A stretch of DNA of 64,000 nucleotides from an uncultured Synergistaceae bacterium (GTDB lineage: Bacteria > Synergistota > Synergistia > Synergistales > 79-D21), in NCBI GenBank assembly GCA_964521575.1, contig CAZFSR010000001.1, forward strand, positions 368,470-432,469, given 5' to 3'. The position numbers and the translations under genes were made by a program. The notes beneath the pieces were generated by a model that had not been told where the DNA came from, searched no databases, and was given only the letters and a program-made list of their open reading frames with translations. This document shows, piece after piece, positions 2,761 to 19,635 of the stretch. Every line of letters begins with the position of its first letter. Within the stretch, counting starts at the first letter, position 1.

Positions 2761-5700
2761 GTGGCTTTTTCCTTTCTTCGCGGGTGTTCATGCTTTCGCG
2801 GCGTATCGCCCGCCCTGTTCCATGGAGGGAACCCGGGGGTCCCTTCACGGCGGGCTGTGTTCGCCTGCCTGCGAAACGCCCGCTTCCAGGTTTTTCTCCC
2901 GTTTTCTCTTTTCTTCCTCTTCTCCGTTTTAGTTTTCGAGGCGCCGGCCCATGCCGCCGCGGCGGGTTCCCCGTCCCACGGCCTGAGCCTGCCCCTGGCC
3001 GGGGGACTGGTCTTTGCCGCCGCCTTCGCGGCCTTTCTTGCCGGCAGGCAGACGGCCCCGCGAAAGGAGCAGTCCAGAAGCGGACAGGCGGAGCCGCCCG
3101 CCTCCAGGGAACCGGAGCTTCCGGAAGCAACGGTCCAGGCCCAACGGGTCCAGCCTGGCGAGAACGAAAGCCTCCTTTCCGAAGCCCAGGAATTGGCCAG
3201 GATCGGTTTCTTCCGGGCGGACCTCCAGACCGGCTCGGTCGAGGCGTCGCCTTTCCTTCGGGATCTCTTCGGCTTTGGCCCGGAAGAGCCGCTCTCCTTC
3301 CAGGACTACGAGAGACGGATTCACCCCGAAGACCTTTCCCGCGTCAGGGCGGCGAGGGAACAGGCTTTCGCCGGGAAGGACGACCTGTACGAAATCCGTT
3401 ACCGGGTGTCGCCCGGCTCCCGCGTCGTCAGGCAGGTCTCCGCAAGGATCCATGTCGTCCGCGGCGACGAAGGGAGGCCGATGGGGCTTTTCGGCGTCAT
3501 CCAGGACCTGACCGACCGGCTTGAGGTGGAAAGCCGCCTGCGGATCAGCCAGGAACTGTTCCGCCAATACATGGAGAACGCGCCGAGCGCGGTGATCATG
3601 GCTTCCGCACAGGGACGCATACAGGACGCCAGCCCTTCGGCCGAGCGTCTTTTCCGCCTCTCCAGGGAACAGCTGCTCGGGATGGTCCTCCTGGACCTTT
3701 TCCCGACGGACTATGTTGACGAAGGGCGAAAACGGCTCCGAGAACTGGCTGGGCGCGGACACCTGAGCGTGGAGGCCCCCTTCCGCACCGCCGCCGGGAA
3801 AGTCGGCTGGGGGAGATGGGATGCCGTGAGCCTCTCCCAGGGGGCCTACATGGTTTTCCTGACCGACCTGACCCAGGAGCACGAGACGCAGGAGGCCCTG
3901 CTCCACAGCGAGGAAGCCTTCAAGAGGCTGGCGGAGAACCTTCCCACCCTGATCTTCAGGGTCGACGAGGATTTCCGGATGGTTTACCTCAACCCCAGCA
4001 CAGAGCGGTTTTTCGGACGGACGATGGAGGAGCTGCAGTGCAAGCCCCTGGAGGACTCCGGCCTGCCGGTTGTTTTCATCCGGCAATGGCTGGACCGGCT
4101 GAAGGATGTCTTCCGGACGGCTCAGGGAATGCGTTTCGAGGTCACCCTGGACACGGGGGCGATGGTCCGCCACCTCCAGACCGCCCTCGTCCCCGAGAAG
4201 GCGGACCTGGGGATCGTACGCTCCGTCCTGGCGGTGTCCACGGACATCACCGACATCAAGCGGCAGGAGGCCCGGACCCAGCAGCAGAGGGACTTCCTGG
4301 ACACCCTCATACGGAACGCCGGGGACGGGATCGCCGTGTTCGATTCCACGGGCCGGTTTCTCGTCTTCAACCCGGCGATGGAGGCGATGACGGGCTGGAA
4401 ACTCGAGGAGCTCCAGCCTCCCGCGATCTCCTATTCCTTTTCCCGCGGGGAGGGAGCCGCGGCGGCGATGGCCGGGATCCTGAAAGCCCTCGAAGGGGTG
4501 GATTCGGAGGAAGAGCGCTTCCTGCCGTGCCGGGGGGACGTGGTGAAGACGGTCATGGTCTCGTCCAGCCCCCTGTCGGGCAACCCCGATAAGCTGACCC
4601 TGGTCATCGTCAGGGACATCACGGAGCAAAAGCGGGCGACCGAGGCCCTGGCCAGGGAGCGGGCATACCTTGACATGCTCTTCGAAAACGCCCCGGACGG
4701 AATGGTCGTGACGGACCGATTCGGGCAGATCCTCCGCGTGAACCGCCGTTTTTCGGAGATGTTCGGTTACGAGCGCCAGGAGGCGATGGGGCGGCAGATC
4801 GACACCCTCGTGGCCCAGGGCGGCTACGCGCGGGAGGGGATGACCCTGACGCGCCAGGTGGCTTCCGGAAGGGCGGTCAGCGTCGAGACGGAACGTGTCC
4901 GCAAGGACGGGACGCTTTTCCCCTGCCGGGCCATCGGGATCCCGATCCGTCTCGAGGGAGGGGATGTCCATCTTTACATCCTGTACCACGACCTGACCGA
5001 GATCCGCCAGCGGGAGGCCGAGCTCCGGCTGGCGAACGAGGTCGTCAAGAGCAGCCCGGTCATTCTCTTCAGGTGGGGGAACGAGCAGGGATCCCCGATC
5101 GACTATGTCTCCGAGAACGTCCGCCTGTGGGGATACGAGCCCGGGGAGCTGGTCTCGGGCCGCAAGCCCTACGCGGAACTGATCCACCCCGAGGACCGGG
5201 AGAAAACCCTCCAGGAAGTGCGGGACTTCGTGGAGGAAAGCCGGGACGAGTTCCAGCAGGAATACCGGGTCGTGATGAAGGACGGGGAGACGATCTGGGT
5301 CAACGACCAGACGCGGGTCGTCAGGACGGAGGCAGGGAGCATCGCCTTCTACCAGGGGGTTGTCCTGGACATCACGGAGAAGAAGCGCTTCGAGATCCTC
5401 CTGGAGGAGAACTACCGGACGATGAGGCGGGCCTGGGACGAAACGATCGAGGTGCTTTCCACCACCGTCGAGATGCGCGATCCCTACACGGCCGGCCACC
5501 AGCGGAGGGTGGCCCGGCTTGCGGGGGCCATCGCCAGGAAGCTCGGGGTTCCCGAGCAGTCCCTCTTTGCCGTTGAAAGGGCTTCGCTCCTCCACGACGT
5601 CGGGAAGATCGAGGTGCCGGCGGAGATCCTCAGCAAGCCCGGCAGCCTGTCTCCCATCGAGATGGGGATCGTGAAGCAGCACGTGGAGGCCGGGTGGAAG

Positions 5701-6006
5701 ATCCTGAAGAACATCGCCCTTCCCTGGCCGCTGGCGGAGATCGTCTACCAGCACCACGAACTCCTTGACGGGAGCGGGTATCCCCGAGGGCTGAGGGGCG
5801 AGGAAATCTGCCTCGAGGCACGGATCATCACCGTGGCGGACATCGTGGAGGCCATGGCCTCCCACAGGCCGTTCAGGCCCTCCAGGGGGCTTGATGCGGC
5901 CCTGGAGGAAATCGGGCAGCAAAAAGGGAAGACCCTGGACTGGCAAGTCGTGGATGCCTGCCTCGAGCTTTTCCGAGGGGAAGGCTTCACGCTGGAAAAG
6001 CCCTGA
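2761..6006 (+). CDS. Membrane-anchored multi-PAS HD-GYP c-di-GMP phosphodiesterase/response protein
   Basis: 1081 aa ORF. N-terminal hydrophobic segments, then several PAS-like repeats (recurring ...DITE(Q/K)K... and IHPED motifs). C-terminal HD-GYP domain (LLHDVGKIEVP ... HHELLDGSGYPRGL). The true start within the first ~100 codons is uncertain. Confidence 0.85.
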   Translation: MAFSFLRGCSCFRGVSPALFHGGNPGVPSRRAVFACLRNARFQVFLPFSLFFLFSVLVFEAPAHAAAAGSPSHGLSLPLAGGLVFAAAFAAFLAGRQTAPRKEQSRSGQAEPPASREPELPEATVQAQRVQPGENESLLSEAQELARIGFFRADLQTGSVEASPFLRDLFGFGPEEPLSFQDYERRIHPEDLSRVRAAREQAFAGKDDLYEIRYRVSPGSRVVRQVSARIHVVRGDEGRPMGLFGVIQDLTDRLEVESRLRISQELFRQYMENAPSAVIMASAQGRIQDASPSAERLFRLSREQLLGMVLLDLFPTDYVDEGRKRLRELAGRGHLSVEAPFRTAAGKVGWGRWDAVSLSQGAYMVFLTDLTQEHETQEALLHSEEAFKRLAENLPTLIFRVDEDFRMVYLNPSTERFFGRTMEELQCKPLEDSGLPVVFIRQWLDRLKDVFRTAQGMRFEVTLDTGAMVRHLQTALVPEKADLGIVRSVLAVSTDITDIKRQEARTQQQRDFLDTLIRNAGDGIAVFDSTGRFLVFNPAMEAMTGWKLEELQPPAISYSFSRGEGAAAAMAGILKALEGVDSEEERFLPCRGDVVKTVMVSSSPLSGNPDKLTLVIVRDITEQKRATEALARERAYLDMLFENAPDGMVVTDRFGQILRVNRRFSEMFGYERQEAMGRQIDTLVAQGGYAREGMTLTRQVASGRAVSVETERVRKDGTLFPCRAIGIPIRLEGGDVHLYILYHDLTEIRQREAELRLANEVVKSSPVILFRWGNEQGSPIDYVSENVRLWGYEPGELVSGRKPYAELIHPEDREKTLQEVRDFVEESRDEFQQEYRVVMKDGETIWVNDQTRVVRTEAGSIAFYQGVVLDITEKKRFEILLEENYRTMRRAWDETIEVLSTTVEMRDPYTAGHQRRVARLAGAIARKLGVPEQSLFAVERASLLHDVGKIEVPAEILSKPGSLSPIEMGIVKQHVEAGWKILKNIALPWPLAEIVYQHHELLDGSGYPRGLRGEEICLEARIITVADIVEAMASHRPFRPSRGLDAALEEIGQQKGKTLDWQVVDACLELFRGEGFTLEKP

Positions 6007-6033
6007 GGAAATGACTGGCGAAAGGAAGGGGCC

Positions 6034-7305
6034 ATGGAGACTCTCAGGGAGATGCCAAGGGATGACCGGCTTCAGTACGGCATACTGGCGGGAACCTTCC
6101 TCTCGCTGGCCCTGGCGGGCCTCCTTTTCGACACCCCTTCGGAGATCGTGCTGGGGCTGGGGAGGATCATCACGGATCCGGACTACCTCATCACCGACTA
6201 CATGGGCGTGGGGGGGATGGGGGCCTCTTTTGTCAACAGCGGCCTCGTTTCCCTGCTTTGCATTGGCCTGCTTCTTCTCCTGAGGGTCCCGGCGACGGGC
6301 ATCACGATCGCAGCCGTCTGGACGGTCGCCGGGTTCTCCTTTTTCGGCAAGAACCTCCTTAACATCTGGTTCATCATCGCAGGCGTGTGGCTCTATGCGC
6401 TGTACCGGAAAGAACCGTTCAGCCGGTTCATCTACTCCGCCCTTTTCGGGACGGCCCTGGCTCCCCTCGTCACGCAGATCCTTTTCGGTTTCAGCGGCCC
6501 CCTTATCCTGAAAATTCCCCTCGCGGCGCTCGCAGGCCTTTCCGTGGGCTTTCTCCTTCCCCCGCTGGGGACCGCGATGATGCGCTTCCACCAGGGGTTC
6601 AACCTTTACAACATCGGGTTCGTCTCCGGGCTTGTCGGTTCGGTTTACCTTTCCCTGTTCCGCTCCTACGGGTTTGTCCCGGCCAGCCGGCTCATCTGGA
6701 CGACGGGGCACAACAGGATGCTCGCTCCCCTGTTCCTGGCCTTCTTCGCGGTTCTTTTCCTTTCCGGGCTCACGCTCAACGGGTTCCGCCTGTCCGGCCT
6801 TTCCGCCATCATGCGCTACCCGGGACGGATCGTCACGGACTTCCTGATGCTGGAGGGAACCGGACCGACCCTGATGAACATGGGGCTTGGAGGGGCGGCG
6901 TCGATCCTCTACCTTCTCGCCATCGGGGGCGACATCAACGGGCCGACCCTGGCCGGGGTCTTCACGGTGGTCGGCTTTTCCGCCTTCGGCAAGCATCTGC
7001 GGAACATGGCTCCCATCGTGACGGGCGTCGTGCTGGGAGGCATCACGAAGGTCTGGGGACTGAGCGATCCCCGCATCCAGCTAGCGGCCCTCTTCGGGAC
7101 AACCCTGGCCCCGGTGGCCGGGGAATTCGGCGTCCTCTGGGGAATCGCGGCGGGCTTCGTCCATTCCTCCCTGGTCCTGAACGTGGGGGCCCTGCACGGG
7201 GGGTTCAACCTTTACAACAACGGCTTCTCGGGCGGGGTGGTCGCCGCCGTCCTCGTTCCGGTCATCGAGGCCATCAGGACAGGGAGGGAACACCGTGATT
7301 CATGA
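6034..7305 (+). CDS. Polytopic membrane protein, DUF1576-like, with internal two-fold repeat
   Basis: 423 aa and very hydrophobic. The two halves share FFGKNLLNIW...FGTALAPLV...HQGFNLYNIGF versus AFGKHLRNMA...FGTTLAPVA...HGGFNLYNNGF. The DUF1576 family assignment is from memory. Confidence 0.75.
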   Translation: METLREMPRDDRLQYGILAGTFLSLALAGLLFDTPSEIVLGLGRIITDPDYLITDYMGVGGMGASFVNSGLVSLLCIGLLLLLRVPATGITIAAVWTVAGFSFFGKNLLNIWFIIAGVWLYALYRKEPFSRFIYSALFGTALAPLVTQILFGFSGPLILKIPLAALAGLSVGFLLPPLGTAMMRFHQGFNLYNIGFVSGLVGSVYLSLFRSYGFVPASRLIWTTGHNRMLAPLFLAFFAVLFLSGLTLNGFRLSGLSAIMRYPGRIVTDFLMLEGTGPTLMNMGLGGAASILYLLAIGGDINGPTLAGVFTVVGFSAFGKHLRNMAPIVTGVVLGGITKVWGLSDPRIQLAALFGTTLAPVAGEFGVLWGIAAGFVHSSLVLNVGALHGGFNLYNNGFSGGVVAAVLVPVIEAIRTGREHRDS

Positions 7306-7642
7306 GCATGAGCGGGTCGTCCGCATGGTTTCGGAGCTCCAGAATTTCCTCTTTTCCATGGGAGCCAGCGAGGTCTGCTCGGTCATTCGGGAGACCCGGG
7401 AGGCCTTCCTCGTCTCCATCCGGGGCAACAGCCGCGGGAACATCTGCCCGAAGGTGGACAAGCTCAGGAAACTTCTCCGCATGCCGCGCCGGGCCGACAT
7501 GGAAGAGGAGCTCTGGTCCCTGGCGGGGGCCGTGGACTACGATACGGAACTTTCCCTCGTCGGCATGATGACCGATAGCGCCGAGATCCGGTGCGACGAG
7601 GCGGCCGGACTGGTGGAGATCGAACTTGTAAGAAAAAAGTGA
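7295..7642 (+). CDS. Hypothetical small cytoplasmic protein
   Basis: 115 aa with a GTG start 4 nt after GGGAGGGA. Overlaps the end of the DUF1576-like gene by 11 nt. No recognisable motif. Confidence 0.45.
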   Translation: MIHEHERVVRMVSELQNFLFSMGASEVCSVIRETREAFLVSIRGNSRGNICPKVDKLRKLLRMPRRADMEEELWSLAGAVDYDTELSLVGMMTDSAEIRCDEAAGLVEIELVRKK

Positions 7643-7714
7643 ATCGGGGGATTTTGTTTATAATCGGTTTAGTTATTGGAAATATCCGCTTTTTTAGTGT
7701 TGTGAAGAGGGGGC

Positions 7715-7743
7715 TTGACAATGATCCTGAACCCCTTTATCAT
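7715..7743 (+). promoter_or_regulatory. Sigma70-like promoter of the ilv-leu leader
   Basis: TTGACA (7715-7720), 17-nt spacer, TATCAT (7738-7743). Lies about 70 nt upstream of the leader ORF in an AT-rich patch. Confidence 0.5.
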
Positions 7744-7813
7744 ACCCCCCAATAAAGATTAACCGGACGGCGAAAGCCAAAAACCGGCATCCTGAAAAAG
7801 GAGGGGAATTCCG

Positions 7814-7906
7814 TGAAGCCGAGCAACCGAGTCAGCAAGCAGCTCGTCCTGGTACTGGCGCTGATTATTGGACACGGGTTCCCTCCTGGGGCAGCCGGTG
7901 CCTAAG
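7814..7906 (+). CDS. ilv-leu leader peptide (30 aa) MKPSNRVSKQLVLVLALIIGHGFPPGAAGA
   Basis: GTG start 9 nt after AAGGAGG (7798-7804). Nine consecutive branched-chain/Ala codons LVLVLALII. Stop TAA at 7904-7906, followed 21 nt later by a terminator. Not in the ORF track because it is under 60 aa. Confidence 0.7.
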
Positions 7907-7927
7907 CGCCGCGCGAGCTGAAACCCA

Positions 7928-7968
7928 GGCCGGGACCCGCGAAAACCAGCGGGTCCCGGCCTTTTTTT
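7928..7968 (+). terminator. Intrinsic terminator (attenuator) upstream of ilvN
   Basis: GGCCGGGACCCGC (7928-7940), loop GAAAACCA, GCGGGTCCCGGCC (7949-7961), then T7 (7962-7968). Confidence 0.8.
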
Positions 7969-8047
7969 ATACGCGAAAGCACTTCAGGCCATCGAATTCA
8001 AGAATATTTCCAGAGACAGAGAGAGAACGTTTCAGGGAGGTGTCGAT

Positions 8048-8605
8048 ATGATGAGAAGGACATTGAGCGTCATCTCGGAGGACAACCCGGGCGTGCTGAC
8101 CCGGCTGGCGGGGCTGATCTACCGGCGCGGGTACAACGTGGAAAGCCTGAGCGTGGGACGTACCGACATTCCCGGCTTTTCACGCTTCACGGTGGTCGTG
8201 AACGGGGACGACGGCGTGATCGACCAGGTCGCCAAGCAGCTGGACAAGCTGATCGAGGTCGTGTCCGTCCGGCGGCTTTCTCCCGGGCGTTCTGTGGAAC
8301 GGTGGCTCCTGCTGATGAAGGTCAAGGCTCCCGTCCACATGAGGCCGCAGGTTCTGCAGGCGGCCGAAATCTTCCGCTGCCGGGTCGTCGACGTGGGCGC
8401 GGAGGCGGTCGTCCTCGAACTGACGGGCGACAAGGGGAAGGTCGAAGCCTGCGTGGAGGCCCTCCGCCCTTACGGGATCCTGGAGATGACCTCCAGCGGC
8501 TCCGTGGCGATGGAGCGCGCCGGTTTCGCGGAGGCGCAGGGCGAGCCGGGAGAAAAGGCGTATTCTTCCGCGGACAGTTTTTCATCCGTGGCATTCACAT
8601 TCTGA
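8048..8605 (+). CDS. ilvN: Acetolactate synthase small (regulatory) subunit
   Basis: 185 aa. ACT-domain N-terminus RRTLSVISEDNPGVLTRLAGLIYRRGYNVESLSVG, typical of IlvN/IlvH. Confidence 0.9.
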   Translation: MMRRTLSVISEDNPGVLTRLAGLIYRRGYNVESLSVGRTDIPGFSRFTVVVNGDDGVIDQVAKQLDKLIEVVSVRRLSPGRSVERWLLLMKVKAPVHMRPQVLQAAEIFRCRVVDVGAEAVVLELTGDKGKVEACVEALRPYGILEMTSSGSVAMERAGFAEAQGEPGEKAYSSADSFSSVAFTF

Positions 8606-8626
8606 TTCGAGGGGAGAGGTTGGGAA

Positions 8627-9637
8627 ATGGCTAAGGTTCTTTACGAGAAGGACGCAAACCCGCAAGTGCTGAAGAGCAGGAAGGTGGCCATCCTGGGGTA
8701 CGGAAGCCAGGGGCACGCCCACGCCCAGAACCTGAAGGAAAGCGGCGTCTCCGTCGTGGTCGGCCTGCATGCCGGCAGCCGGTCGAAGGCGGTCGCCGAA
8801 AAAGACGGCTTTGTCGTGAAAAGCGTTTCCGAGGCGGTGGCCGAGGCCGACGTCGTCATGTTCCTGATGCCCGACCACGTCCAGGCAAAGGTTTTCGAGA
8901 CCGAGGTCCGCCCGGCGCTGAAACCCGGGACGACCCTGGGCTTCTCTCACGGCTTCACGATCCACTACGGCCAGATCGTTCCCCCGAAGACCGCTGATGT
9001 CTTCATGGTGGCCCCCAAGAGCCCGGGGCATCTCGTCCGGCGGATGTACACCGAGGGCAAGGGCGTGCCGGGACTCCTGGCCGTCTACCAGGATGCCACC
9101 GGTATGGCCCGCGAAATCGGCATGGCCTACGCGGCGGCCATCGGTTGCGCCCGGGCGGGCGTCATCGAGACGACCTTCGCCGAGGAGACGGAAACCGACC
9201 TGTTCGGCGAGCAGGCCGTCCTCTGCGGCGGCGTGACCGAGCTCGTAAAGGCGGGTTTCGACACGCTCGTCGACGCCGGATACCAGCCGGAGATCGCCTA
9301 TTTCGAGTGCCTGAACGAGCTCAAGCTCATCGTGGACATGATGTTCGAGGGCGGCATGGGCTGGATGCGCTACTCCGTCAGCGACACGGCCAAGTACGGC
9401 GACTGCGTCGCGGGGCCGAAGGTCGTGGATGCCCGGACCCGGGAGACGATGAGGGAATTGCTGAAGGCCGTGCAGGACGGGACCTTCGCGAAGGACTGGA
9501 TCCTCGAGAACCAGTGCGGACGGCCGCGGATGCGGGCCTGGGAGGCCCGCGAGAGATGCCACCTCATCGAGAAGGTGGGCAGCGAGCTCCGCGACATGAT
9601 GCCCTGGCTCGAGGCGAAAAGACCGCCCGAGGCCTAG
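8627..9637 (+). CDS. ilvC: Ketol-acid reductoisomerase
   Basis: 336 aa. [25 protein letters not shown]-binding motif and class I KARI length. Confidence 0.95.
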
Positions 9638-9649
9638 GGGGGACTTCCG

Positions 9650-11206
9650 ATGCCGGAGGACTGGGTACGAATTTTCGACACGACCCTCAGGGACGGCGAA
9701 CAGTCCGCGGGGGTCAACCTGAACACCGCTGAAAAGATCCAGATCGCCCACCAGCTGGCGAAGATGAAGGTGGACGTCATCGAGGCGGGCTTCCCAGCCG
9801 CCTCGCCCGGCGACATGGAGGCCGTCTCCACGATCGCCCGGGAGGTCAAGGGGCCCATCATCGCGGGGCTGGCCCGGACCCGGGCCGGGGATATCGAGGC
9901 GGCCGCCGGGGCCGTGAAGCATGCGGCGAAACCCCGTATTCACACGTTCATCGCCACGAGCCCGATCCACATGGAGCACAAGCTGAAGATGACGCCCGGG
10001 GAGGTCCTCGAAGAGGTCCGGCGTGGCGTCACGCAGGCACGGTCTTTCGTTTCGGACGTGGAGTTCTCCGCCGAGGACGCCAGCCGCAGCGACGTCGATT
10101 TCCTGGTGAAGGTGTTTTCCCTGGCGATCGAGTGCGGGGCCACGACCCTGAACATCCCCGACACGGTGGGCTACGCGGCCCCCGAGGAGTTCGGCCGCTT
10201 CGTGAAGGCCATCCTCGACGGCGTGAAGGCCCCTCCGGGCGTGATCTGGTCGGTTCACTGCCACAACGACCTGGGCCTGGCGGTGGCGAACTCCCTTGAA
10301 GCGGTCAGGGCCGGCGTGCGGCAGGTCGAGTGCACGGTGAACGGCCTGGGCGAAAGGGCGGGCAACGCCTCCATGGAGGAGGTCGTCATGGCCCTGCGGA
10401 CGCGGCCCGATCGTTACGGGGTGGCTTCAAGGCTGGAGACGCCGCGGCTTTACGCCACGAGCAAGCTGGTGTCACGCCTGACGGGCGTCCTGGTGCCGCC
10501 GAACAAGGCCATCGTGGGGGAGAACGCCTTTGCCCACGAGGCGGGCATCCACCAGCACGGGATGCTCTGCAACAGGGCCACCTACGAGATCATGAAGCCC
10601 GAGGACGTGGGATCCCCCGGGACGGCGCTGGTCCTGGGCAAGCACTCGGGCCGCCACGCCTTCCTGAAGCGCCTGGAGTCCCTGGGCTTCGAGCTGGACG
10701 CTTACCAGAAGGAAAAGGCCTTCCTTGTCTTCAAGGAACTCTGCGACCGCAAGAAGACGGTTTCCGACGGCGACATCGAGGCCCTCGTCGTGGACGAGGT
10801 GCTGGTGGTGGTTCCCGAGCGCCGCTTCGAGCTGAAGGAGTATTCCGTCCAGGTTGCAGGCCGGGGACGGGCCTCCGCCTCCATCACCCTGAGGGACGGA
10901 ACGGGCGAGGTGACCGATGCGGCGGCCGGCAACGGCCCCGTCGATGCGGCCTACAGCGCCATCCGGCGCCTCGTGGGGATTTCCCCGGAGCTGTCCAGCT
11001 ACCGGATCCAGGCGACCAGCGAACGTTCTGACGCCATGGGAGAGGCCGTCATCACGCTGCGGCTGAACGGCCTGAAGGCGCAGGGGCGGGGGGCCAGCAC
11101 CGACGTCATCGAATCGAGCATCAAGGCCTACGTCAACGCCGTGAACAGGCTTTACGCCCTCGCGGCGGCAAAGGGGGAAACGCTCAATGGCGAGAACGCT
11201 GGCTGA
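9650..11206 (+). CDS. leuA: 2-isopropylmalate synthase
   Basis: 518 aa. [12 protein letters not shown] and [17 protein letters not shown] motifs, plus a C-terminal LeuA regulatory domain. Confidence 0.95.
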
Positions 11207-12479
11207 AGCCCTCATCGCCTCCCACACGGAGGATCGCGTCGAACCCGGGGCCATCTGCCGGGTTCGCGTGGATTTCGCCTTCGCCAACGACATCACGGGG
11301 GCCCCGGCCATCGCCGAATTTTCACGCATGGGGGCGGAAAAAGTCTTCGACCCGAACCGGTGCGCGATCGTGCCGGACCATTTCACGCCCAACAAGGATA
11401 TCGCCTCTGCCCGGCAGGTCCAGGCCGCCCGGAAGTTCGCGCGGGAACAGGGGATGCTTTTCTGGGAGGTGGGCCGTGCAGGCGTGGAGCACGCCTTCCT
11501 GCCCGAAAAGGGACTGATCCTCCCCGGGGAGGTGATCCTGGGGGCAGACAGCCACACCTGCACGGGCGGAGCCCTCGGGGCCTTCGCCACGGGAGTCGGC
11601 TCCACCGATCTCGCTGGGGCATGGGCCCTTGGGGAAACGTGGTTCAGGGTTCCCGAGACGATCCGGGTCGAGGTGGAGGGACAGCCTTCCCCCTGGGTAA
11701 CGGGAAAAGACCTGGTCCTCTCCCTGATCGGAAGGATCGGCGTGGAGGGGGCCCGCTACTCGGCCCTGGAGTTCGGGGGCGAGGGGATTGCCGCCCTGCC
11801 CATGGACGACCGGTTCACCGTGGCGAACATGGCCGTCGAGGCGGGTGCCAAGGCCGGCCTTTTCGTCCCCGACGAGCGAACACTGGCCTATGCGCGCGCA
11901 AGGGCGGCCCGGCCGTTCGATCCGGTTTACCCGGATCCCGGGGCTTCCTACGGACAGATCGTCCGGATCGGCGCGGGTTCCCTCGAGCCGGTGGTCGCCC
12001 TGCCTCACCTGCCGTCGAACGTGAAGGCCGCAGGCGAGTGCGGGTCCATCGAGATCGACCAGGTCTTCATCGGAAGCTGCACGAACGGTCGCCTTCGGGA
12101 CCTCGAGCTGGCGGCGGCCGTCCTGAAGAACCGCTCGGTCCACGAGCGGGTGAGGCTGGTCGTCATCCCCGCCACGGCGGAGGTTTTCTCCGAGGCCCTG
12201 AAGCGTGGCTACATCGAAACCTTCCTCGAGGCCGGCGCGTCGGTGAGCACCGCGACCTGCGGTCCCTGCCTGGGGGGACACTACGGCATCCTGGCTCCCG
12301 GCGAGAGGTGCCTTTCCACCAGCAACCGCAATTTCGTCGGGAGGATGGGGCACACGGGAAGCGAGGTTCTCCTTTCCGGTCCCCTCGTGGCGGCCGCCTC
12401 CGCGGTGACGGGGCGCGTGACGGACCCGAGGGAAATCCTCGGCCTCGACGATCTCCCGGAAGGAGGAAAAGGGGAATGA
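11187..12479 (+). CDS. leuC: 3-isopropylmalate dehydratase large subunit
   Basis: 430 aa. Aconitase-family GADSHTCTGGALG and GSCTNGR Fe-S ligand motifs. Overlaps leuA by 20 nt and leuD by 4 nt. Confidence 0.9.
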   Translation: MARTLAEALIASHTEDRVEPGAICRVRVDFAFANDITGAPAIAEFSRMGAEKVFDPNRCAIVPDHFTPNKDIASARQVQAARKFAREQGMLFWEVGRAGVEHAFLPEKGLILPGEVILGADSHTCTGGALGAFATGVGSTDLAGAWALGETWFRVPETIRVEVEGQPSPWVTGKDLVLSLIGRIGVEGARYSALEFGGEGIAALPMDDRFTVANMAVEAGAKAGLFVPDERTLAYARARAARPFDPVYPDPGASYGQIVRIGAGSLEPVVALPHLPSNVKAAGECGSIEIDQVFIGSCTNGRLRDLELAAAVLKNRSVHERVRLVVIPATAEVFSEALKRGYIETFLEAGASVSTATCGPCLGGHYGILAPGERCLSTSNRNFVGRMGHTGSEVLLSGPLVAAASAVTGRVTDPREILGLDDLPEGGKGE

Positions 12480-12994
12480 GCGACCGTTTTTCGGGGAAAG
12501 CCTGGGTTTACGGGGACAACGTGGACACGGACGTCATCATCCCGGCCCGCTACCTTTCGACAAGCGACCCGGCCGAACTGGCTCCCCACTGCCTGGAGGA
12601 CCTGGATCCCGGTTTTGTGAAAGGGATGGAACCGGGAGACCTCATTGTCGCGGGGGGCAACTTCGGCTGCGGGTCGAGCCGAGAACACGCGCCCCTGGCC
12701 ATCAAGGGAGCGGGGGTTTCCTGCGTGATCGCGGTTTCGTTCGCCCGCATTTTCTTCCGGAACGCCCTGAACATCGGCCTGCCGATCCTGGAATGCCCCG
12801 AGGCGGTTTCGGGGATCGAGTCCGGGCAGACGGTGGAAGTGGACCTGGCGGAAGGACGGATCCTGAACCTGGACACGGGGAAAGCCTTTTCCGCGAAGCC
12901 CTTCCCGCCGTTCCTGCGGGACCTGGTGGCCCGCGGCGGGCTTGTCCCGGCCGTGAGGGCCCGCCTTGAAGAGAGAAGGAGGAACGCACGTTGA
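12476..12994 (+). CDS. leuD: 3-isopropylmalate dehydratase small subunit
   Basis: 172 aa starting at the ATGA overlap with the leuC stop. MSDRFSGKAWVYGDNVDTDVIIPARYL and GNFGCGSSREHAP motifs. In the ORF track it appears only as the tail of the artefactual ORF 11360..12994. Confidence 0.9.
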   Translation: MSDRFSGKAWVYGDNVDTDVIIPARYLSTSDPAELAPHCLEDLDPGFVKGMEPGDLIVAGGNFGCGSSREHAPLAIKGAGVSCVIAVSFARIFFRNALNIGLPILECPEAVSGIESGQTVEVDLAEGRILNLDTGKAFSAKPFPPFLRDLVARGGLVPAVRARLEERRRNAR

Positions 12995-14139
12995 CCGAGA
13001 ATAGGTATCGAGTGGCCGTCATCCCGGGTGACGGGATCGGCATCGAGGTGACGGCCGAGGCAAGGAAAGTCGTCGAGGCGGCAGGCCGGAAGTTCGGGTT
13101 TGCCGTCGATTGGACCCACTACCCCTACGGGGCTGAACATTACCTTGCCACGGGAGAAATCCTGCCGGAAACCTTCCTGGAAGAGGCGAAAGGGTTTGAC
13201 GCCCTGCTTCTGGGGGCCATCGGGGATCCCCGGGTAAAACCCGGGATCCTGGAGCGCGGAATCCTGCTGACGCTTCGCTTCACGTTCGACCAGTACGTGA
13301 ACCTTCGTCCCGCGAAGGCCTTCCCGAAGGTCCCCCTTCCCGTACCGACGGGGGGAAAGAAATTCGACACGGTTGTCGTCCGGGAAAACACCGAGGATTT
13401 CTACATGGGGATCGGCGGCGTCTCCAGGGGCGGCCGGGTCGATTTCCCCATGTCCTGCCTGCGGGGGGCCTATGCCCTGGGCGGTTCGGTCTCCGCGGTG
13501 ACGGACCCGGCCGTACCCCTGGCGGTCCAGCTGGGCATCGCCACGAAACCGGGAATCGAGCGGATCGCCCGTTATGCGGGGAACACTGCACGCAAGCGGG
13601 GCGAAAACCGGGTGACCCTCGTGACGAAATCCAATGCGCTTCCGCAGATCTACGGTTTCTGGGAAGAAGTGGCGGGCGCCCTTTTCGCGGCGGAATTCCC
13701 CGACCTGGCCCTCGAGAAGGCGAACGTGGACGCCCTCTGCTACCACCTGGTGAGAAACCCCTGCGCGTATGGGGTCCTCCTCTGCCCCAACATGTTCGGC
13801 GACATCGTCAGCGACCTGCTGGCGGGGCTTTCCGGCGGCCTGGGCATGGCGGCCGGAGCCGACATCGGTGAGGGGCTTTCCATGTTCGAACCTGTTCATG
13901 GGTCGGCCCCGGACATCGCGGGGCAGGGGAAGGCGAATCCCCTGGCGGCCATCCTGACGGCCTCCCTGATGCTGGACCACCTGGGGCAGGCGGAGGCGGC
14001 CGCCGCGGTGGAAAGGGCGGTTGAAGTGCACCTGGCCTCTGCCGGGGCGGAGGGATTGCCGCCGGAGCTCGGCGGCAAGGCGTCCACCTCCGAGGTGGCC
14101 CTTGGCGTGATCCGCGCCCTAGAGGCCCTGGAGGGGTAA
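12991..14139 (+). CDS. leuB: 3-isopropylmalate dehydrogenase
   Basis: 382 aa with a TTG start overlapping the leuD stop. IPGDGIGIEV and NMFGDIVSDL...GGLGMAAGA motifs of the isocitrate/isopropylmalate dehydrogenase family. Confidence 0.9.
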   Translation: MTENRYRVAVIPGDGIGIEVTAEARKVVEAAGRKFGFAVDWTHYPYGAEHYLATGEILPETFLEEAKGFDALLLGAIGDPRVKPGILERGILLTLRFTFDQYVNLRPAKAFPKVPLPVPTGGKKFDTVVVRENTEDFYMGIGGVSRGGRVDFPMSCLRGAYALGGSVSAVTDPAVPLAVQLGIATKPGIERIARYAGNTARKRGENRVTLVTKSNALPQIYGFWEEVAGALFAAEFPDLALEKANVDALCYHLVRNPCAYGVLLCPNMFGDIVSDLLAGLSGGLGMAAGADIGEGLSMFEPVHGSAPDIAGQGKANPLAAILTASLMLDHLGQAEAAAAVERAVEVHLASAGAEGLPPELGGKASTSEVALGVIRALEALEG

Positions 14140-14144
14140 CGCGC

Positions 14145-15824
14145 ATGGATAGCCTGACCGGTGCCGAGATGGTGGTGCGCTCCCTGCAGGCCGAGGGCGT
14201 CGAGGTGGTCTTTGGCCTCCCGGGGGGAACCGTCATTCCTCTCTACGATGCCTTCCATGATGCTGAAAAACCCCTGCACGTCCTGGTCCGTCACGAACAG
14301 GCGGCCGCCCATGCCGCAGACGGCTATGCGAGAGCATCGGGCCGCCCGGGAGTTTGCCTGGCGACTTCGGGTCCGGGAGCCGCAAACCTGGTGACCGGAC
14401 TGGCGACGGCCTGGGCGGATTCCGTGCCCGTCGTGGCGGTGACAGGCCAGACGGCAACTGCCGTGATCGGGACGGACGCCTTCCAGGAAGCCGACATGAT
14501 CGGCATGACCCTGCCCATCCTGAAGCACAGTTTCCCCGTCCGGGAAGTGGACCGCCTTCCCTTTGCCATGAAGGGAGCCTTCACCATCGCCTCGACCCGC
14601 CGGCCGGGACCCGTCCTCGTGGACGTGCCCATCGACGTCCAGCGGGCAAGGGCTCCCTTTGCCTACCCGGAGAGGGTCTTCTTCCCGGGGTATCGCCCCG
14701 ATATCCCGGAACGCCTTGACGACCTTCCGGCGGTGCTTTCAGCCCTGCAGGCCGCCGAAAGGCCCCTCCTGCTTGCCGGTGGGGGAGCCAACGATCCGGA
14801 ATCAGCCAGGATCCTGCTGGAGCTGGCGGAAAGACACGATTTTCCCGTTGCCGTTTCCCTGAGGGGCAAGGGCAGCTTTCCGGAAGCCCACAGGCTTTTC
14901 CTGGGCCTGTGCGGGATGCACGGGACGCTTGCCGCCAATCGAGCGGCCCAGGAGGCCGATTTCATCCTGGCGGTGGGAACCCGGTTCAGCGAAAGGACGA
15001 CCGGCAGGGCCGACCGGTTCGCCCCCTCGGCCAAGGTCGCCCACGTGGACCTGGACCCGGCCGAAATCGGGAAGAACGTGCCTTCCGATTGGTCCCTCGT
15101 GGGCCCCTCCCATGTGGTGCTGAAGCATGTCCAGGATTCGCTCGCGGGCTGGGGCAAAGCCGGGGCCGAATGGCTCCGGACCCTGGAGGGCTGGAAGGAA
15201 GAGGACGCGGCCAGGCTGGCCCTGGAATCCCTGGGGTTTTCGCCTCGTCGGATCCTCGCGGCCATCCGGTCGGCCATGGGCGACAAGGCCCTCGTCACGA
15301 CCGACGTAGGGCAGCACCAGATGTGGGCGGCCCAGCATTTCGAGTCCTGCGGTCCAAGGAGCTTCATTTCTTCGGCCGGGCTCGGGACCATGGGTTTCGG
15401 CCTCCCGGCGGCCATGGGCGCGGCCTTCGCCGCACCTGGTCGTCCGCTGGCCTGCCTGACGGGTGACGGGAGCTTCCTGATGAACATCCAGGAACTCGAC
15501 ACCTGTGCCCGCTACGCGATACCGGTGAAGATCTTCCTTTTCAACAACGGGTCCCTGGGGATGGTCCGTCAATGGCAGGAGCTCTTCTACAAGGAACGCT
15601 ACGCCCACACGGTGACGGACGGGCGGGTCGACTTTGCGCGGATTGCCGATGCTTTCGGGGTTCCGGGAACCAGGGTCGAGCGGGAAAAGGAAATCGACGG
15701 GGCGATCGAGAAGGCCCTTTCCACGGATGGCCCGGCCCTTGTGGAATTTCGCATCGCCATGGAGGAAAAGGTGTTTCCCATGGTTCCGCCCGGGGCGGGG
15801 ATGGACGAGATGATCGAAGGGTAG
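14145..15824 (+). CDS. ilvB: Acetolactate synthase large (catalytic) subunit
   Basis: 559 aa. ThDP-enzyme motifs GPGAANLVTGLATAWADSVPVVAVTGQ and GDGSFLMNIQELDT. Confidence 0.95.
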   Translation: MDSLTGAEMVVRSLQAEGVEVVFGLPGGTVIPLYDAFHDAEKPLHVLVRHEQAAAHAADGYARASGRPGVCLATSGPGAANLVTGLATAWADSVPVVAVTGQTATAVIGTDAFQEADMIGMTLPILKHSFPVREVDRLPFAMKGAFTIASTRRPGPVLVDVPIDVQRARAPFAYPERVFFPGYRPDIPERLDDLPAVLSALQAAERPLLLAGGGANDPESARILLELAERHDFPVAVSLRGKGSFPEAHRLFLGLCGMHGTLAANRAAQEADFILAVGTRFSERTTGRADRFAPSAKVAHVDLDPAEIGKNVPSDWSLVGPSHVVLKHVQDSLAGWGKAGAEWLRTLEGWKEEDAARLALESLGFSPRRILAAIRSAMGDKALVTTDVGQHQMWAAQHFESCGPRSFISSAGLGTMGFGLPAAMGAAFAAPGRPLACLTGDGSFLMNIQELDTCARYAIPVKIFLFNNGSLGMVRQWQELFYKERYAHTVTDGRVDFARIADAFGVPGTRVEREKEIDGAIEKALSTDGPALVEFRIAMEEKVFPMVPPGAGMDEMIEG

Positions 15825-15825
15825 G

Positions 15826-15854
15826 TTGGTGGCACCGGTTTAACCTGCTATACT
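15826..15854 (+). promoter_or_regulatory. Candidate promoter of the pilin-like gene
   Basis: TTGGTG (15826-15831), 17-nt spacer, TATACT (15849-15854). Located immediately after the ilvB stop. Confidence 0.4.
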
Positions 15855-15897
15855 GAAAAGCGTTCAAAAAACGCTTGGAAGGGCGGGGGGAAAAGGG

Positions 15898-16773
15898 ATG
15901 GCGGGATTTCGAGCCAGGGAAGACCGGAAATGGAAGAGCGAAGGCTTCACTCTTGTCGAACTGCTGGTTGCCCTGGTCATCGTCGGGATCTTGGCCGGAG
16001 CCCTTCTCCTGGTTTCTTCGGCCGGGGCGGACAAGGCCCAGGCGGCTCGGGTGGTGAGCGATCTTCGGAACCTGAAGGCCGCGGCGGTGGAGTTCAACGC
16101 GTCCTCCGGGCGCTGGCCCTCGGCGGTGGCCGACCTTTCCGGCTACCTGGACGGCCCCCTGGAGTGCAAGGGGCCTGTCTGCTACGAGGTGGCATCGGGG
16201 GAAACCGGGACTTTCATCGGCTTCACAGCCGATCTCGCCAGGGCAGGAGCGGGTTTGAAGGACCGGTTGAAGGGAATGGCGGGATCCGTTGCCCTCTACT
16301 CCGACACGGCCCTGACGAAGACCTATGCGGGTGAGGCCCTGGCAATCTACCCGGTGTCTTACGCAGGAAGCGGGACGGTGGCCACCGCAGGGGGGACATC
16401 GGGAACAGGCGGAACATCGGAAACAAGCGGAACATCGGGAACAGGCGGAACATCCGAAACAGGCGTACCGAGTGGTGCGGGATCGGGAGAAACCTCTCCG
16501 GATGGCGGTTCCTCTGGTCCCTCTTCGGATCCTGCCTTTTGGGCGACCGAGAAGGACGGGCTGACGATCACACGGACGGCCGAAGGCATATGGGTCCGGC
16601 CCCAGGCCGGGTACCAGATCAAGGGGAGCACGCTCGACGGCAAGAGTTTCACCCTCACGAACGGTTCCGGGTTTGCCCTTTTCTACAAGGGTGCCGACGG
16701 CAACTGGTATTACGAAAAGAACGGCAAGGAAACCCCCGTCGACATCGGAAGCCTGCAGATCATAAAAACCTGA
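15898..16773 (+). CDS. Type IV pilin-like protein (prepilin-type N-terminal cleavage/methylation domain) with Gly/Thr/Ser linker and extra C-terminal domain
   Basis: 291 aa. Class III signal peptide ...KSEG|FTLVELLVALVIVGILAG with G-1, F+1 and E+5. Low-complexity GGTSGTGGTSETSGTSGTGGTSETG linker, then a roughly 90-aa C-terminal domain. Confidence 0.8.
   Translation: MAGFRAREDRKWKSEGFTLVELLVALVIVGILAGALLLVSSAGADKAQAARVVSDLRNLKAAAVEFNASSGRWPSAVADLSGYLDGPLECKGPVCYEVASGETGTFIGFTADLARAGAGLKDRLKGMAGSVALYSDTALTKTYAGEALAIYPVSYAGSGTVATAGGTSGTGGTSETSGTSGTGGTSETGVPSGAGSGETSPDGGSSGPSSDPAFWATEKDGLTITRTAEGIWVRPQAGYQIKGSTLDGKSFTLTNGSGFALFYKGADGNWYYEKNGKETPVDIGSLQIIKT
16396..16467 (+). repeat. 18-nt tandem repeat x4 inside the pilin-like gene
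   Basis: ACATCGGGAACAGGCGGA / ACATCGGAAACAAGCGGA / ACATCGGGAACAGGCGGA / ACATCCGAAACAGGCGTA. In frame, encoding TSGTGG/TSETSG/TSGTGG/TSETGV. Confidence 0.9.
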
Positions 16774-16792
16774 CGGTCGGTTGAAAGACAAC

Positions 16793-16828
16793 AAAAGGCC
16801 CGGCCCCCGTTTCGGGGCCGGGCCTTTT
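16793..16828. terminator. Bidirectional intrinsic terminator between the pilin-like gene and the symporter
   Basis: AAAA, GGCCCGGCCCC (16797-16807), loop CGTTTC, GGGGCCGGGCC (16814-16824), TTTT. Confidence 0.8.
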
Positions 16829-16836
16829 GTTGCACC

Positions 16837-18291
16837 CTACTCGGCTGCGGAAACCGATTCTTTCTCCCCGGACCACTGGCCCACCAGGAGGCCCAGGAGG
16901 TAGAGGCCCGCCGAGAAGGCGATCCCCACGAAGAAAGGGTGAAGGGCGGAAAGCGAGGGCGGGACTTGCACGCCCAGGAGCCCCTTGGCGGTAGGGGCGA
17001 ATCCCGCCGCGTACCAGAGGCTTGCGGCGGCGAGTCCCCCGAGGGAGGAGGCCCATGTTGCCAACCGGTCGGCCTTTCCCGCAAGAAGCGCCAGGTAAGG
17101 GACGAGGATCGCCGAGGCGATGAGGCTCCAGCTGGTCGTGCAAAGAAGGGCGATGATCGTTCCGCTTTTCGCCGCGAAGAGCCCCGAAGCGACGGCACAA
17201 GTCGCGGTGGCGCCTTTCCAGGCCGCCCCTTCGAGTCGACGGCCCGTCAGGTCGTGCCCCAGGCTGCCTGCGGCGATGTGGAGCAGGGCCGATGCGGTGG
17301 AAAGTGAAGCCGAGACGATGGCCATGGCGAAGAGCTGCTGCCCGGGAAGCGAAAGCAGCCTTGAGACGAGCAACGGAATGACGGCATCGGGGGAAGCGAC
17401 CTCGTCGGGGTTGATCAGAAGCCGCGAGAGGCCTCCTGCCAGGTAGGTGCCGCCGACGAGGAGGGCGATGACCAGCATGGCCACTGGAGCGGCCTTTTTG
17501 GCCTCATCGCGGGACGAGAGGGCGAAGTGCCGCTGGATCAGCTGGGGCTGGGCCCAGACCCCGATGGAGGTGACCGCGGCCAGGGTCAGGACGAAGAGGC
17601 CTTGCGGTCCCTCGCTGAGCCGGGTGAATCCCCTGTTGGCCAGTTCCGTCGGGGGAAGGGCAGCCAGCGCCTGCAGGCCGGAGGGCAGGCCCCCGACAGC
17701 CTTGAACACCGCAAAGAGGAGAAGGCCCACGCCCACGGCCATGATTCCGCCCTGCAGGGCTTCCGTGTAGAGGACTCCCCTGAGGCCGCCCCAGGTGACG
17801 CTCACCGCGACGATGAGGACCAGGATCCAAAGGGAAGCGGAAAACGGCAGCGGCGTCACCCCCGAGAGCATCATCGCGGCTCCCTTGAAAACGGCTGAGG
17901 CGTAGACGACCAGCAGTCCTCCCGTCAAAAGGCCGGCGAATACCCGGAAAGAGTTGGAACCGATGGCGGCCCCAAGCAATGCCCCCGGGGTTTTTGCGTT
18001 CAGGCGGCGCTGCCAGAGGCGCGTGGGCCAGGCCAGGAAGCGGTAGGCGAACCAGGTCCCGAACCAGATATTTCCCGCGGCGATCAGGAGCATCTGCAGG
18101 CCGTAACGATGGCACAGTCCCCCGAACCCCACGAGGGCCACGGCCGAAACGTAGGTGGCCACGTAGGCCAGGGCCTGGATGGCCGAACCGACACGGCCGG
18201 GAAGCAAATGGTCCTTCCCCCTTGCCCAGCGGGCAAGGGCGACCAGCAGCAACGCGTAGGCACACCACAGAAGAATAAAACCGAAATTCAT
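16837..18291 (-). CDS. Sodium:solute symporter (SSF) family transporter
   Basis: 484 aa with about 12-13 hydrophobic segments. The N-terminal region resembles PutP/PanF/SSF architecture. Substrate unknown. Confidence 0.8.
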   Translation of the reverse strand: MNFGFILLWCAYALLLVALARWARGKDHLLPGRVGSAIQALAYVATYVSAVALVGFGGLCHRYGLQMLLIAAGNIWFGTWFAYRFLAWPTRLWQRRLNAKTPGALLGAAIGSNSFRVFAGLLTGGLLVVYASAVFKGAAMMLSGVTPLPFSASLWILVLIVAVSVTWGGLRGVLYTEALQGGIMAVGVGLLLFAVFKAVGGLPSGLQALAALPPTELANRGFTRLSEGPQGLFVLTLAAVTSIGVWAQPQLIQRHFALSSRDEAKKAAPVAMLVIALLVGGTYLAGGLSRLLINPDEVASPDAVIPLLVSRLLSLPGQQLFAMAIVSASLSTASALLHIAAGSLGHDLTGRRLEGAAWKGATATCAVASGLFAAKSGTIIALLCTTSWSLIASAILVPYLALLAGKADRLATWASSLGGLAAASLWYAAGFAPTAKGLLGVQVPPSLSALHPFFVGIAFSAGLYLLGLLVGQWSGEKESVSAAE

Positions 18292-18392: not shown

Positions 18393-18405
18393 TGCGATCA
18401 CCTCC

Positions 18406-18654: not shown

Positions 18655-18665
18655 GACCGCCAAGG

Positions 18666-19613: not shown

Positions 19614-19635
19614 GAAATCCCTGGAATTGACTGAA

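Follow-up and report, generated by a model that had tools for sequence, protein, structure and literature searches.

The ilv-leu operon of Bacillus subtilis is controlled by a T-box, a tRNA-Leu riboswitch that recognizes uncharged tRNA itself without involving a leader peptide. In the enterobacterial ilvGMEDA operon, multivalent Leu/Val/Ile control is exerted through a leader of about 30 codons, which encodes the ilvL peptide (MTALLRVISLVVISVVVIIIPPCGAALGRGKA; PF08046, NF007744), and through competition between a terminator and an antiterminator. The attenuator peptide of the Staphylococcus aureus ilv-leu operon has genetic support from suppressor mutations in the terminator and in a leader codon (Kaiser et al. 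2018, PMC5794164). In actinobacteria, short open reading frames (ORFs) with Ile/Val/Leu runs overlap terminator hairpins ahead of acetohydroxyacid synthase genes, as in Corynebacterium ilvBNC (Seliverstov 2005, PMC1262725; PMC10272879; PMC11857589). Here we analyze the leader of an ilvN-ilvC-leuA-leuC-leuD-leuB-ilvB operon found in 64,000 nucleotides of DNA from an uncultured Synergistaceae bacterium (GenBank assembly GCA_964521575.1, contig CAZFSR010000001.1, positions 368,470 to 432,469), a stretch referred to below as the window. This leader contains a translatable short ORF, a cluster of cognate codons, an intrinsic terminator and a mutually exclusive antiterminator. From comparison of sequences, we judge it quite likely to be a ribosome-mediated leader-peptide transcription attenuator that responds to branched-chain amino acids (BCAA) and controls all seven genes.

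An orphan RNA motif described from Synergistia and metagenomes, PBC-10, comprises 53-58 examples (Stav et al. 2019, BMC Microbiol 19:66, PMC6429828). It is found most often upstream of ilvH and of phenylacetate-CoA ligase genes, in the orientation of those genes and often in more than one copy per genome. PBC-10 has a stem that is an intrinsic terminator, along with alternative structures, and binding to a dimeric protein was tentatively suggested for it, with no mention of a leader ORF (PMC6429828). CodY control of ilv genes has been predicted in Synergistetes, with attenuation unmentioned (Geng et al. 2022). In searches that left most subscription journals outside, we found no paper on leader-peptide attenuation in Synergistetes/Synergistota, and no follow-up of PBC-10 beyond Stav 2019 and Geng 2022. 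The mechanism is textbook and new in this lineage, being apparently undescribed for Synergistota; a first-pass annotation of the window, made from the sequence alone, had likewise suspected that it was undocumented there.

The leader ahead of ilvN

The elements of the leader are listed in Table 1. Its sigma-70-type promoter, already proposed in the first-pass annotation, agrees with the consensus at 11 of 12 positions and is the best among only three promoter-like sites in 5000-20000. It is situated in an intergenic stretch with a GC content of 0.39-0.41, and transcription would start near 7750. Comparable TTGACA/TAnnAT promoters are found upstream of the leaders of related genomes. The 30-codon ORF and its AAGGAGG Shine-Dalgarno (SD) sequence had been recognized as well, with the GTG placed at 7814 instead of 7813 and the SD 9 nt upstream instead of 8; the nine consecutive Leu, Val, Ala and Ile codons (L V L V L A L I I) had been read correctly. 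The window has 412 six-frame ORFs of 20-60 aa, of which the leader ORF alone has at least eight Leu, Val or Ile codons in nine consecutive positions, and the leader folds with z = -4.4 relative to dinucleotide shuffles, so that both the ORF and the fold exceed chance.

The terminator at 7927-7968 is the strongest terminator-like site on the plus strand in the 15 kb scanned (5000-20000). Its stem (7927-7941 with 7948-7962) has 14-15 bp, 12 of them G-C, and a loop of 6-8 nt. The hairpin, the T7 tract and the distance of 21 nt from the stop codon stand as first annotated, with the stem starting one nucleotide earlier and being longer than the 13 bp from 7928 given there. The terminator ends 79 nt upstream of ilvN, and the interval between them (7969-8047) contains no promoter-like site. 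NCBIfam models confirm all seven genes of the ilv-leu operon proposed in the first-pass annotation; the genes (8048-15824) are closely packed or overlapping.

The 5′ arm of the terminator can alternatively pair with the 3′ end of the leader ORF. In the window, this antiterminator (7875-7890 with 7924-7939) is a three-tier hairpin of -40.8 kcal/mol, compared with -34.4 kcal/mol for the terminator hairpin, and consists of an outer helix (7875-7882 with 7932-7939), a middle helix (7885-7890 with 7924-7929) and an inner hairpin (7892-7920). An antiterminator overlapping the terminator 5′ arm had been suggested before and is essentially the one computed here, now with compensatory changes behind it; of its two strands, the downstream one had been located exactly and the upstream one was set one nucleotide too far on, at 7881-7892. 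We refer to the SD and start codon of the leader as region 1, to the upstream antiterminator strand as region 2, to its partner as region 3 and to the remainder of the terminator as region 4.

We compared the window with 60 Synergistota ilvN loci, one genome per species. The same design is present in about 58 of them, that is, in all loci with enough upstream sequence: 54 loci that were measured (including L044, L046 and L047), L054, L055 and L059, and Thermovirga lienii DSM 17291. The two remaining loci end early, L012 inside the leader and L013 inside the terminator T-tract. Each locus keeps the SD, the short ORF, the BCAA codon run, the antiterminator and the terminator. Alignment of the ilvN upstream regions of relatives had been fixed in advance as a test of the attenuator, with lack of conservation to count against it; the short ORF, the BCAA run and the terminator proved to be conserved, the opposite of the refuting outcome. 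An in-frame ATG, GTG or TTG preceded by an SD-like block was found in 52 of 52 loci, with peptides of 22-37 aa. In nearly all of the 54 measured loci, the stop codon lies 15-29 nt upstream of a 12-17 bp terminator stem followed by a T-run, and in most of them only 21-40 nt separate the end of the T-run from ilvN, too few to hold an ilvN promoter of its own. The share of Leu, Val and Ile among codons -24 to -9 is 0.61 in the frame of the leader, versus 0.25 and 0.08 in the other two frames.

Three related loci (L044, L046 and L047; positions 3830-3970) have sequences in regions 2, 3 and 4 that are unrelated to those of the other leaders, and retain the four-region design, including a stop codon placed in the loop; here, GCCCUCUU pairs with GAGAGGGC. 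Their run is composed of Ile as the only BCAA (ISIINIIIRI; MSNYMNSISIINIIIRISSAPSFRLDV) and precedes an ilvN-ilvC-ilvB operon. The tail of the peptide is RISSAPSFRLDV in this group, as against ISSGSPEVAGA, and the G-S-P tail is lost. Because these loci keep the run and lose the tail, the peptide tail (G-S-P-P-G) appears to be a by-product of the RNA, and the codon run the conserved feature. Four loci (L054, L055, L057 and L059) have two tandem ilvN-like genes, with the leader (e.g., MTGRFNSVLVIVVVIILAGLLG) ahead of the first copy; in L054, L055 and L059 it is located downstream of rplL.

For analysis of the antiterminator, each transcript was folded after cutting at the end of the terminator 5′ arm. 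The 3′ end of the ORF is the pairing partner of this arm in 53 of 54 cut transcripts, at -23 to -46 kcal/mol and a median z of -3.5. As in the window, the stop codon is placed in the apical loop at other loci too, including the variants with unrelated sequence. Covariation was assessed on a MAFFT alignment of 53 sequences that was made from sequence only and fitted to no structure. RNAalifold, applied to a MAFFT alignment of the truncated leaders, returned four pairs only, with a 3-nt indel shifting the register of region 2 between clades; explicit column pairs on a longer alignment (A2) with the correct register were used in its place. For the antiterminator, 90.2% of the cells are paired and 9 of 13 pairs have changed on both sides; none of 500 shuffles was as good, and controls with slid columns reached at most 71%. 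The corresponding values for the terminator are 90.8% and 8 of 14 pairs, with a best slid control of 66%, and with 0 of 500 shuffles as good in pairing and 2 of 500 in the count of changed pairs. Compensation in the outer helix can be read from the listed sequences, where GGGCUCC:GGAGCCC (L039) and GGGUUCC:GGAACCC (L032) replace the common GGGUCCC:GGGACCC; the middle helix occurs as CCUGG:CCAGG, CCCGG:CCGGG and CCGA:UCGG.

Region 2 has another potential partner, region 1, a point that goes beyond the first-pass annotation. The pairing of 7799-7815 with 7873-7887 is part of the minimum-free-energy fold, and before region 3 is made it forms in nearly all of the 50 loci folded, with three exceptions. 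The duplex has -21.6 kcal/mol in the window and a mean of -18.1 kcal/mol over 51 loci, compared with control means of -11.9 for the ilvN SD, -11.6 for shuffled sequences and -6.8 for other windows of the leader. In 50 of 51 loci, the ilvN SD control gives the weaker duplex. In these folding models, region 1 is an anti-antiterminator whose pairing also sequesters the ribosome binding site of the leader. The regulatory codons occupy the loop between regions 1 and 2, from 32 nt (first codon) to 8 nt (last codon) upstream of region 2; counted from the start of region 2, the stop codon follows 28 nt downstream. The spacer from the start codon to the run, about 10 codons, is conserved and equals one ribosome footprint.

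The leader peptides are missed by annotation. An exact look-up of five of them, among these the peptides of the window and of T. lienii, in 15 billion collected proteins gave no match, and public protein collections, Pfam, NCBIfam and Rfam contain none of the leaders that were looked up. When five Synergistota leaders were scanned against family models, the sole match was a chance one of a single peptide to PsbQ (E 0.12). Nothing relevant was found with Rfam at E up to 10 in 7000-9000, and no Rfam family reached its gathering score in six related loci or anywhere in the 64 kb of the window, so that all leader and terminator elements described here lie outside current RNA family libraries. A T-box riboswitch and the known RNA leader families were considered and rejected, as none of their models matched.

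Regulatory codons and further copies of the leader

Across the loci, the runs contain 430 Leu, Val or Ile codons versus 9 Phe or Met codons, though all of these are NUN codons. The composition of the run follows the content of the operon. In the 31 operons where leuA follows ilvC, a run has 4.0 Leu codons on average, compared with 0.93 in the 15 ilvN-ilvC-ilvB operons (Mann-Whitney p 2.7e-6), whereas Val (3.06 vs 4.07; p 0.005) and Ile (2.52 vs 3.87; p 0.0009) differ in the opposite direction; these p values are uncorrected for phylogeny, and, judging from the list of loci, the ilvN-ilvC-ilvB group is drawn from three or more clades. In three metagenomic loci (L102, L127 and L170), the same design stands ahead of a leuA-leuC-leuD-leuB operon, and the leader there reads IAILALALTL (...SNAMMIAILALALTLDFGSPPGTPTG), with Leu, Ile and Ala and no Val. 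Ribosome-stalling attenuation is supported by this change of the regulatory codons with the regulated pathway, which neither a protein-binding RNA nor a structural peptide would produce. In the pattern scan of metagenomes, about 35 GC-rich chance matches within coding regions, recognized by a stop codon outside the match, were discarded.

The scan also returned 22 metagenomic loci (L080, L091, L097, L100, L118, L121, L131, L153, L183 and 13 others) in which a BCAA-leader attenuator precedes an ORF of 52-55 aa. A good SD precedes this ORF, its C-terminus is conserved (W-x3-RGPFEG[YF]R), and the genes further downstream vary. The small RGPFEGYR proteins have no Pfam or NCBIfam match.

A covariance model built from ilvN leaders only and spanning region 2 through the T-tract (model R1) finds a second full-length copy in the window, at 24093-24006 on the minus strand (51.2 bits, E = 2.4e-9), ahead of a PaaK-like phenylacetate-CoA ligase gene (Table 1). 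The antiterminator of this copy has -38.0 kcal/mol, with A-U replacing the U-A pair in its outer helix. Four related loci with 58-83% PaaK identity (L194-L197, including Aminithiophilus ramosus) have a leader with Phe/Tyr codons just before region 2, the runs being RFFFT, RFFAIRYYFT, VFSMGYFFT and VFSMVFSFT; the terminator sequence differs in two of the four. The Phe-codon leader would thus control the PaaK-like ligase gene, to judge by its codons and position.

Two more leader-like sites were noted on the minus strand of the window. Ahead of proC (19544-18666), a 31-codon ORF (19731-19636) that encodes MSMNRRLDMALPCSPRPVSFKPGEGWPCPGA with six Pro codons lies between a promoter-like site (19800-19772) and a strong terminator (19613-19586) with T6; R1 gives 26.7 bits here. 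In a truncated fold, the 3′ end of this ORF pairs with the terminator 5′ arm at -27.3 kcal/mol, and the leader may be proline-sensing. At the other site, a promoter-like sequence (18654-18625), a 40-codon ORF without obvious codon run (18589-18467) and a terminator with T7 (18444-18414) precede a small membrane ORF and then a sodium:solute symporter gene (18291-16837). In the relative L194, a homologous symporter gene directly follows paaK, with no leader between them.

Table 1 Features of the ilvN leader, its operon and the second leader copy, in window coordinates.
Feature	Position	Strand	Details
Sigma-70-type promoter	7715-7743	+	-35 TTGACA 7715-7720, 17-nt spacer, -10 TATCAT 7738-7743
Leader SD, AAGGAGG	7798-7804	+	8 nt ahead of GTG
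Region 1, leader SD and start codon	7799-7815	+	pairs with region 2 (7873-7887)
Leader ORF	7813-7905	+	GTG start at 7813, 30 codons and stop; encodes MKPSNRVSKQLVLVLALIIGHGFPPGAAGA
Regulatory codon run	7843-7869	+	codons 11-19, CTC GTC CTG GTA CTG GCG CTG ATT ATT = L V L V L A L I I
Region 2, antiterminator 5′ strand within ORF 3′ end	7873-7890	+	codons H-G-F-P-P-G; outer helix 7875-7882, middle helix 7885-7890
Antiterminator strand TCCCTCCTGGGG	7880-7891	+	partner of CCCAGGCCGGGA
Inner hairpin, antiterminator apex	7892-7920	+	loop CUAA contains the stop codon
Leader stop codon UAA	7903-7905	+	21 nt upstream of terminator stem; in CUAA loop
Region 3	7924-7941	+	7924-7929 and 7932-7939 pair with region 2; 7927-7941 is the terminator 5′ arm
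Antiterminator strand CCCAGGCCGGGA	7924-7935	+	overlaps terminator 5′ arm
Region 4	7948-7968	+	terminator 3′ arm 7948-7962; T7 tract 7962-7968
ilvN	8048-8605	+	NCBIfam
ilvC	8627-9637	+	NCBIfam
leuA	9650-11206	+	NCBIfam
leuC	11187-12479	+	NCBIfam
leuD	12476-12994	+	NCBIfam
leuB	12991-14139	+	NCBIfam
ilvB	14145-15824	+	NCBIfam
Second copy, promoter-like site	TTGACG 24210-24205, TATAAG 24186-24181	-	
Second copy, leader ORF	24140-24060	-	encodes MMNPTNSKMSVRFFFTGVGPPRRADA
Second copy, three consecutive Phe codons	24104-24096	-	
Second copy, region 2	24087-24074	-	
Second copy, stop codon TAG	24062-24060	-	in apical loop
Second copy, region 3	24046-24030	-	
Second copy, terminator	24043-24007	-	ends 22 nt before the PaaK-like gene
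PaaK-like phenylacetate-CoA ligase gene	22710-23984	-	TIGR02155, 509 bits

The genome belongs to Synergistota, order Synergistales; the closest relatives of its IlvN are from Synergistales metagenome-assembled genomes (87-97% identity), in line with the earlier guess of a Synergistota-like genome. Upstream of the leader, on the same strand, are genes for a PAS-HD sensor and a DUF1576 protein and a 115-aa ORF of no assigned function that ends at 7642. A minus-strand ORF of 1355 aa (2929-6996), without Pfam match, overlaps the plus-strand PAS-HD (2761-6006) and DUF1576 (6034-7305) genes and is most likely a shadow ORF resulting from high GC content. No terminator-like site marks the 3′ end of the operon after ilvB (15825-15897); the next gene, which begins 73 nt past ilvB on the same strand (15898-16773), encodes a protein whose N-terminus has a methylation motif of the prepilin type.

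Proposed mechanism and its alternatives

The first-pass annotation had read the locus as a multivalent Leu/Val/Ile attenuator, a reading that is supported by the conservation of the leader, by covariation, by the match between codons and operon content and by the existence of a Phe-codon version. We hypothesize that expression of the operon is tied to how much charged Leu-, Val- and Ile-tRNA is available, as follows. A ribosome would load at the leader SD and GTG (7798-7815) before region 2 exists. When BCAA are plentiful, it would run on to the stop codon, which lies in the antiterminator's apical loop, and melt or occlude region 2 and the inner hairpin; region 3, left free, would pair with region 4, and the terminator (7927-7962 and T7) would stop RNA polymerase 79 nt short of ilvN. 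Under shortage of a BCAA, the ribosome would stall within 7843-7869, upstream of region 2, which could then pair with region 3 as it emerges (-41 kcal/mol), leaving region 4 without a partner and allowing the polymerase to enter the operon. If the leader is not translated, region 2 would pair with region 1 and the terminator would form by default. During a stall, region 1 might be kept occupied, for example, by a second initiating ribosome, as the spacer of one ribosome footprint suggests; this is speculation.

Several points weigh against this mechanism. At equilibrium, whichever ribosome mask was applied, the complete leader favored the terminator combined with the 1:2 pairing. A purely thermodynamic switch was rejected, as folds with masked ribosome footprints never give the antiterminator once region 4 is present; because equilibrium folds always favor the terminator, antitermination would have to be kinetic and co-transcriptional. 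A kinetic decision is usual for classical attenuators. A single stalled ribosome leaves region 1 uncovered, and region 1 could in principle capture region 2, so that an extra assumption is needed. We infer the stalling, the kinetic decision and the occupancy of region 1 in the stall. Two ilvN-ilvC-ilvB loci (L038 and L040) have Leu-rich leaders, counter to the trend, and related genomes are counted as independent in the statistics. In Streptomyces coelicolor, mutation of regulatory codons in candidate ilvB and leuA leaders revealed no classical attenuator behavior (PMC1262725), and since those mutations had no effect, the attenuator reading of the Synergistota leaders calls for caution.

Among the alternatives, protein-mediated antitermination would have a dimeric RNA-binding protein block the terminator by binding the palindrome-like GGGNCCC/CCGG base of the stem, with the ORF being incidental. 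This is the proposal of Stav et al. 2019 for PBC-10, and it is in keeping with the sequences of regions 2, 3 and 4 (GGGTCCC / CCGGGACCC), which are unusually conserved across distant genera, more so than base pairing alone demands. We regard it as improbable: it leaves unexplained the SD and start codon present in all 52 loci, the conserved frame, the stop codon in the apical loop and the codons that match the pathway (Leu/Val/Ile, Val/Ile only, Ile only, Leu without Val, and Phe), and clades with wholly different sequences in regions 2, 3 and 4 retain the ORF logic. Still a little less probable is a hairpin that serves as a constitutive partial terminator or RNA-stability element, with BCAA control exerted at the promoter by a CodY-like repressor. 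The AT-rich region upstream of the promoter 7715-7743, the coexistence of CodY and an attenuator in S. aureus, and the inclusion of ilvN, ilvB, ilvC and leuC among the predicted CodY targets of Synergistetes (Geng et al. 2022) would fit such a repressor. The canonical CodY box AATTTTCWGAAAATT is found nowhere in the window at up to three mismatches, looser AT-rich palindromes with variable spacers being outside this search, and CodY control does not explain the conserved alternative pairing and the codon logic. CodY is possible as an added layer of control rather than as a replacement for the attenuator.

The short ORF could also be an independent gene that encodes a small hydrophobic (membrane) peptide and is closed by a terminator of its own, with the operon transcribed by constitutive leak-through or from another promoter. 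The hydrophobic core of the peptide is long enough to lie in a membrane, and the 22 metagenomic loci place the cassette before genes without obvious link to BCAA. The N-terminus and the tail are not, however, conserved as peptide, the tail changing with the RNA; the paaK version has three Phe codons only and no hydrophobic core; no promoter-like site occurs between the terminator and ilvN, where many loci have only 21-40 nt free; and the looked-up peptides are absent from the protein collection, the scanned ones being without a family match. This is the least probable of the three alternatives, and ribosome-mediated attenuation is the explanation with which we proceed.

Relation to PBC-10 and to known attenuators

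The attenuator is very probably the orphan PBC-10 motif, catalogued previously without interpretation, as far as can be judged by comparison with its published description. Synergistota leaders share with PBC-10 the taxon, both kinds of downstream gene, the terminator stem, the alternative structures and the orientation, and the window has two copies. In T. lienii, ilvH is found at about 151-152 kb of CP003096.1, and its leader scores 78.3 bits with R1; the PBC-10 type region, NC_016148.1:318758-319077, is a different copy. Other cultivable carriers of the element besides T. lienii (leader at L193 2790-2946) are Cloacibacillus evryensis and Acetomicrobium. A leader-peptide mechanism would account for both main gene associations of PBC-10, unexplained since 2019.

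We lean slightly towards a broader reading, in which Synergistota use one portable four-region attenuator, PBC-10, re-coded for each amino acid, across many genes of amino-acid supply: with Leu/Val/Ile codons for ilv-leu operons, Val/Ile only for ilvN-ilvC-ilvB and, in one clade, Ile only, Leu without Val for leuABCD, Phe/Tyr for phenylacetate-CoA ligase and possibly Pro for proC. The sensed amino acid could then be read straight from the leader codons, and physiology inferred from sequence. If so, the PaaK-like ligase would be induced by Phe starvation, suggesting an anabolic role, synthesis of Phe from phenylacetate, rather than a catabolic one, and the unannotated 52-55 aa RGPFEG[YF]R protein would be a candidate member of the BCAA-starvation response. 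Synergistota are anaerobic amino-acid fermenters of digesters, oil wells, gut and oral sites, and their gene regulation is almost unstudied; the attenuator offers a first testable hypothesis of mechanism that would hold phylum-wide. Annotation pipelines miss this leader family entirely, a gap that a covariance model like R1 could fill.

Compared with described systems, the Synergistota leader resembles that of ilvGMEDA in all the features given at the outset, and both have a hydrophobic codon run followed by a Pro/Gly/Ala tail that is encoded by the GC-rich sequence of the stem. The E. coli IlvL segment IIIPPCGAALG resembles IIGHGFPPGAAGA of the leader in the window, a likeness pointed out in the first-pass annotation; the resemblance holds and membership of the same family does not. 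Five Synergistota leaders match no leader-peptide family at E up to 10, including PF08046 and NF007744, to which the E. coli IlvL control matches with E 4e-17 and E 1.5e-23, respectively, and IlvL family membership was rejected. The simplest explanation of the shared PPxGAA tail would be that a GC-rich stem, when translated, yields Pro, Gly and Ala. In contrast to ilvGMEDA, region 1 of the Synergistota leader is the leader SD and start codon rather than the segment with the regulatory codons, the stop codon lies in the apical loop of the antiterminator, and the operon has ilvN first and ilvB last. There is a functional likeness to the enterobacterial leu and ilvBN attenuators as well.

With the T-box of B. 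subtilis, the leader shares transcription attenuation in the 5′ leader of an ilv-leu operon and, as we infer for Synergistota, sensing of tRNA charging. The S. aureus element is similar in having an Ile/Leu-rich short ORF with an SD, followed by a terminator, ahead of an ilv-leu operon outside Proteobacteria, and in being conserved in its lineage. The antiterminator proposed for S. aureus sequesters the poly-U tract, whereas that of Synergistota, known from comparative evidence, takes the 5′ arm of the terminator; the S. aureus attenuator may act together with CodY. The actinobacterial ilvB leaders are unrelated in sequence, and their Streptomyces subgroup is not a proven attenuator; relative to them, the Synergistota element has a clearer four-region design and codons matched to the pathway. 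What the Synergistota leaders add to these known systems is conservation throughout a phylum, a design reused with pathway-specific codons and a candidate mechanism for an orphan RNA motif.

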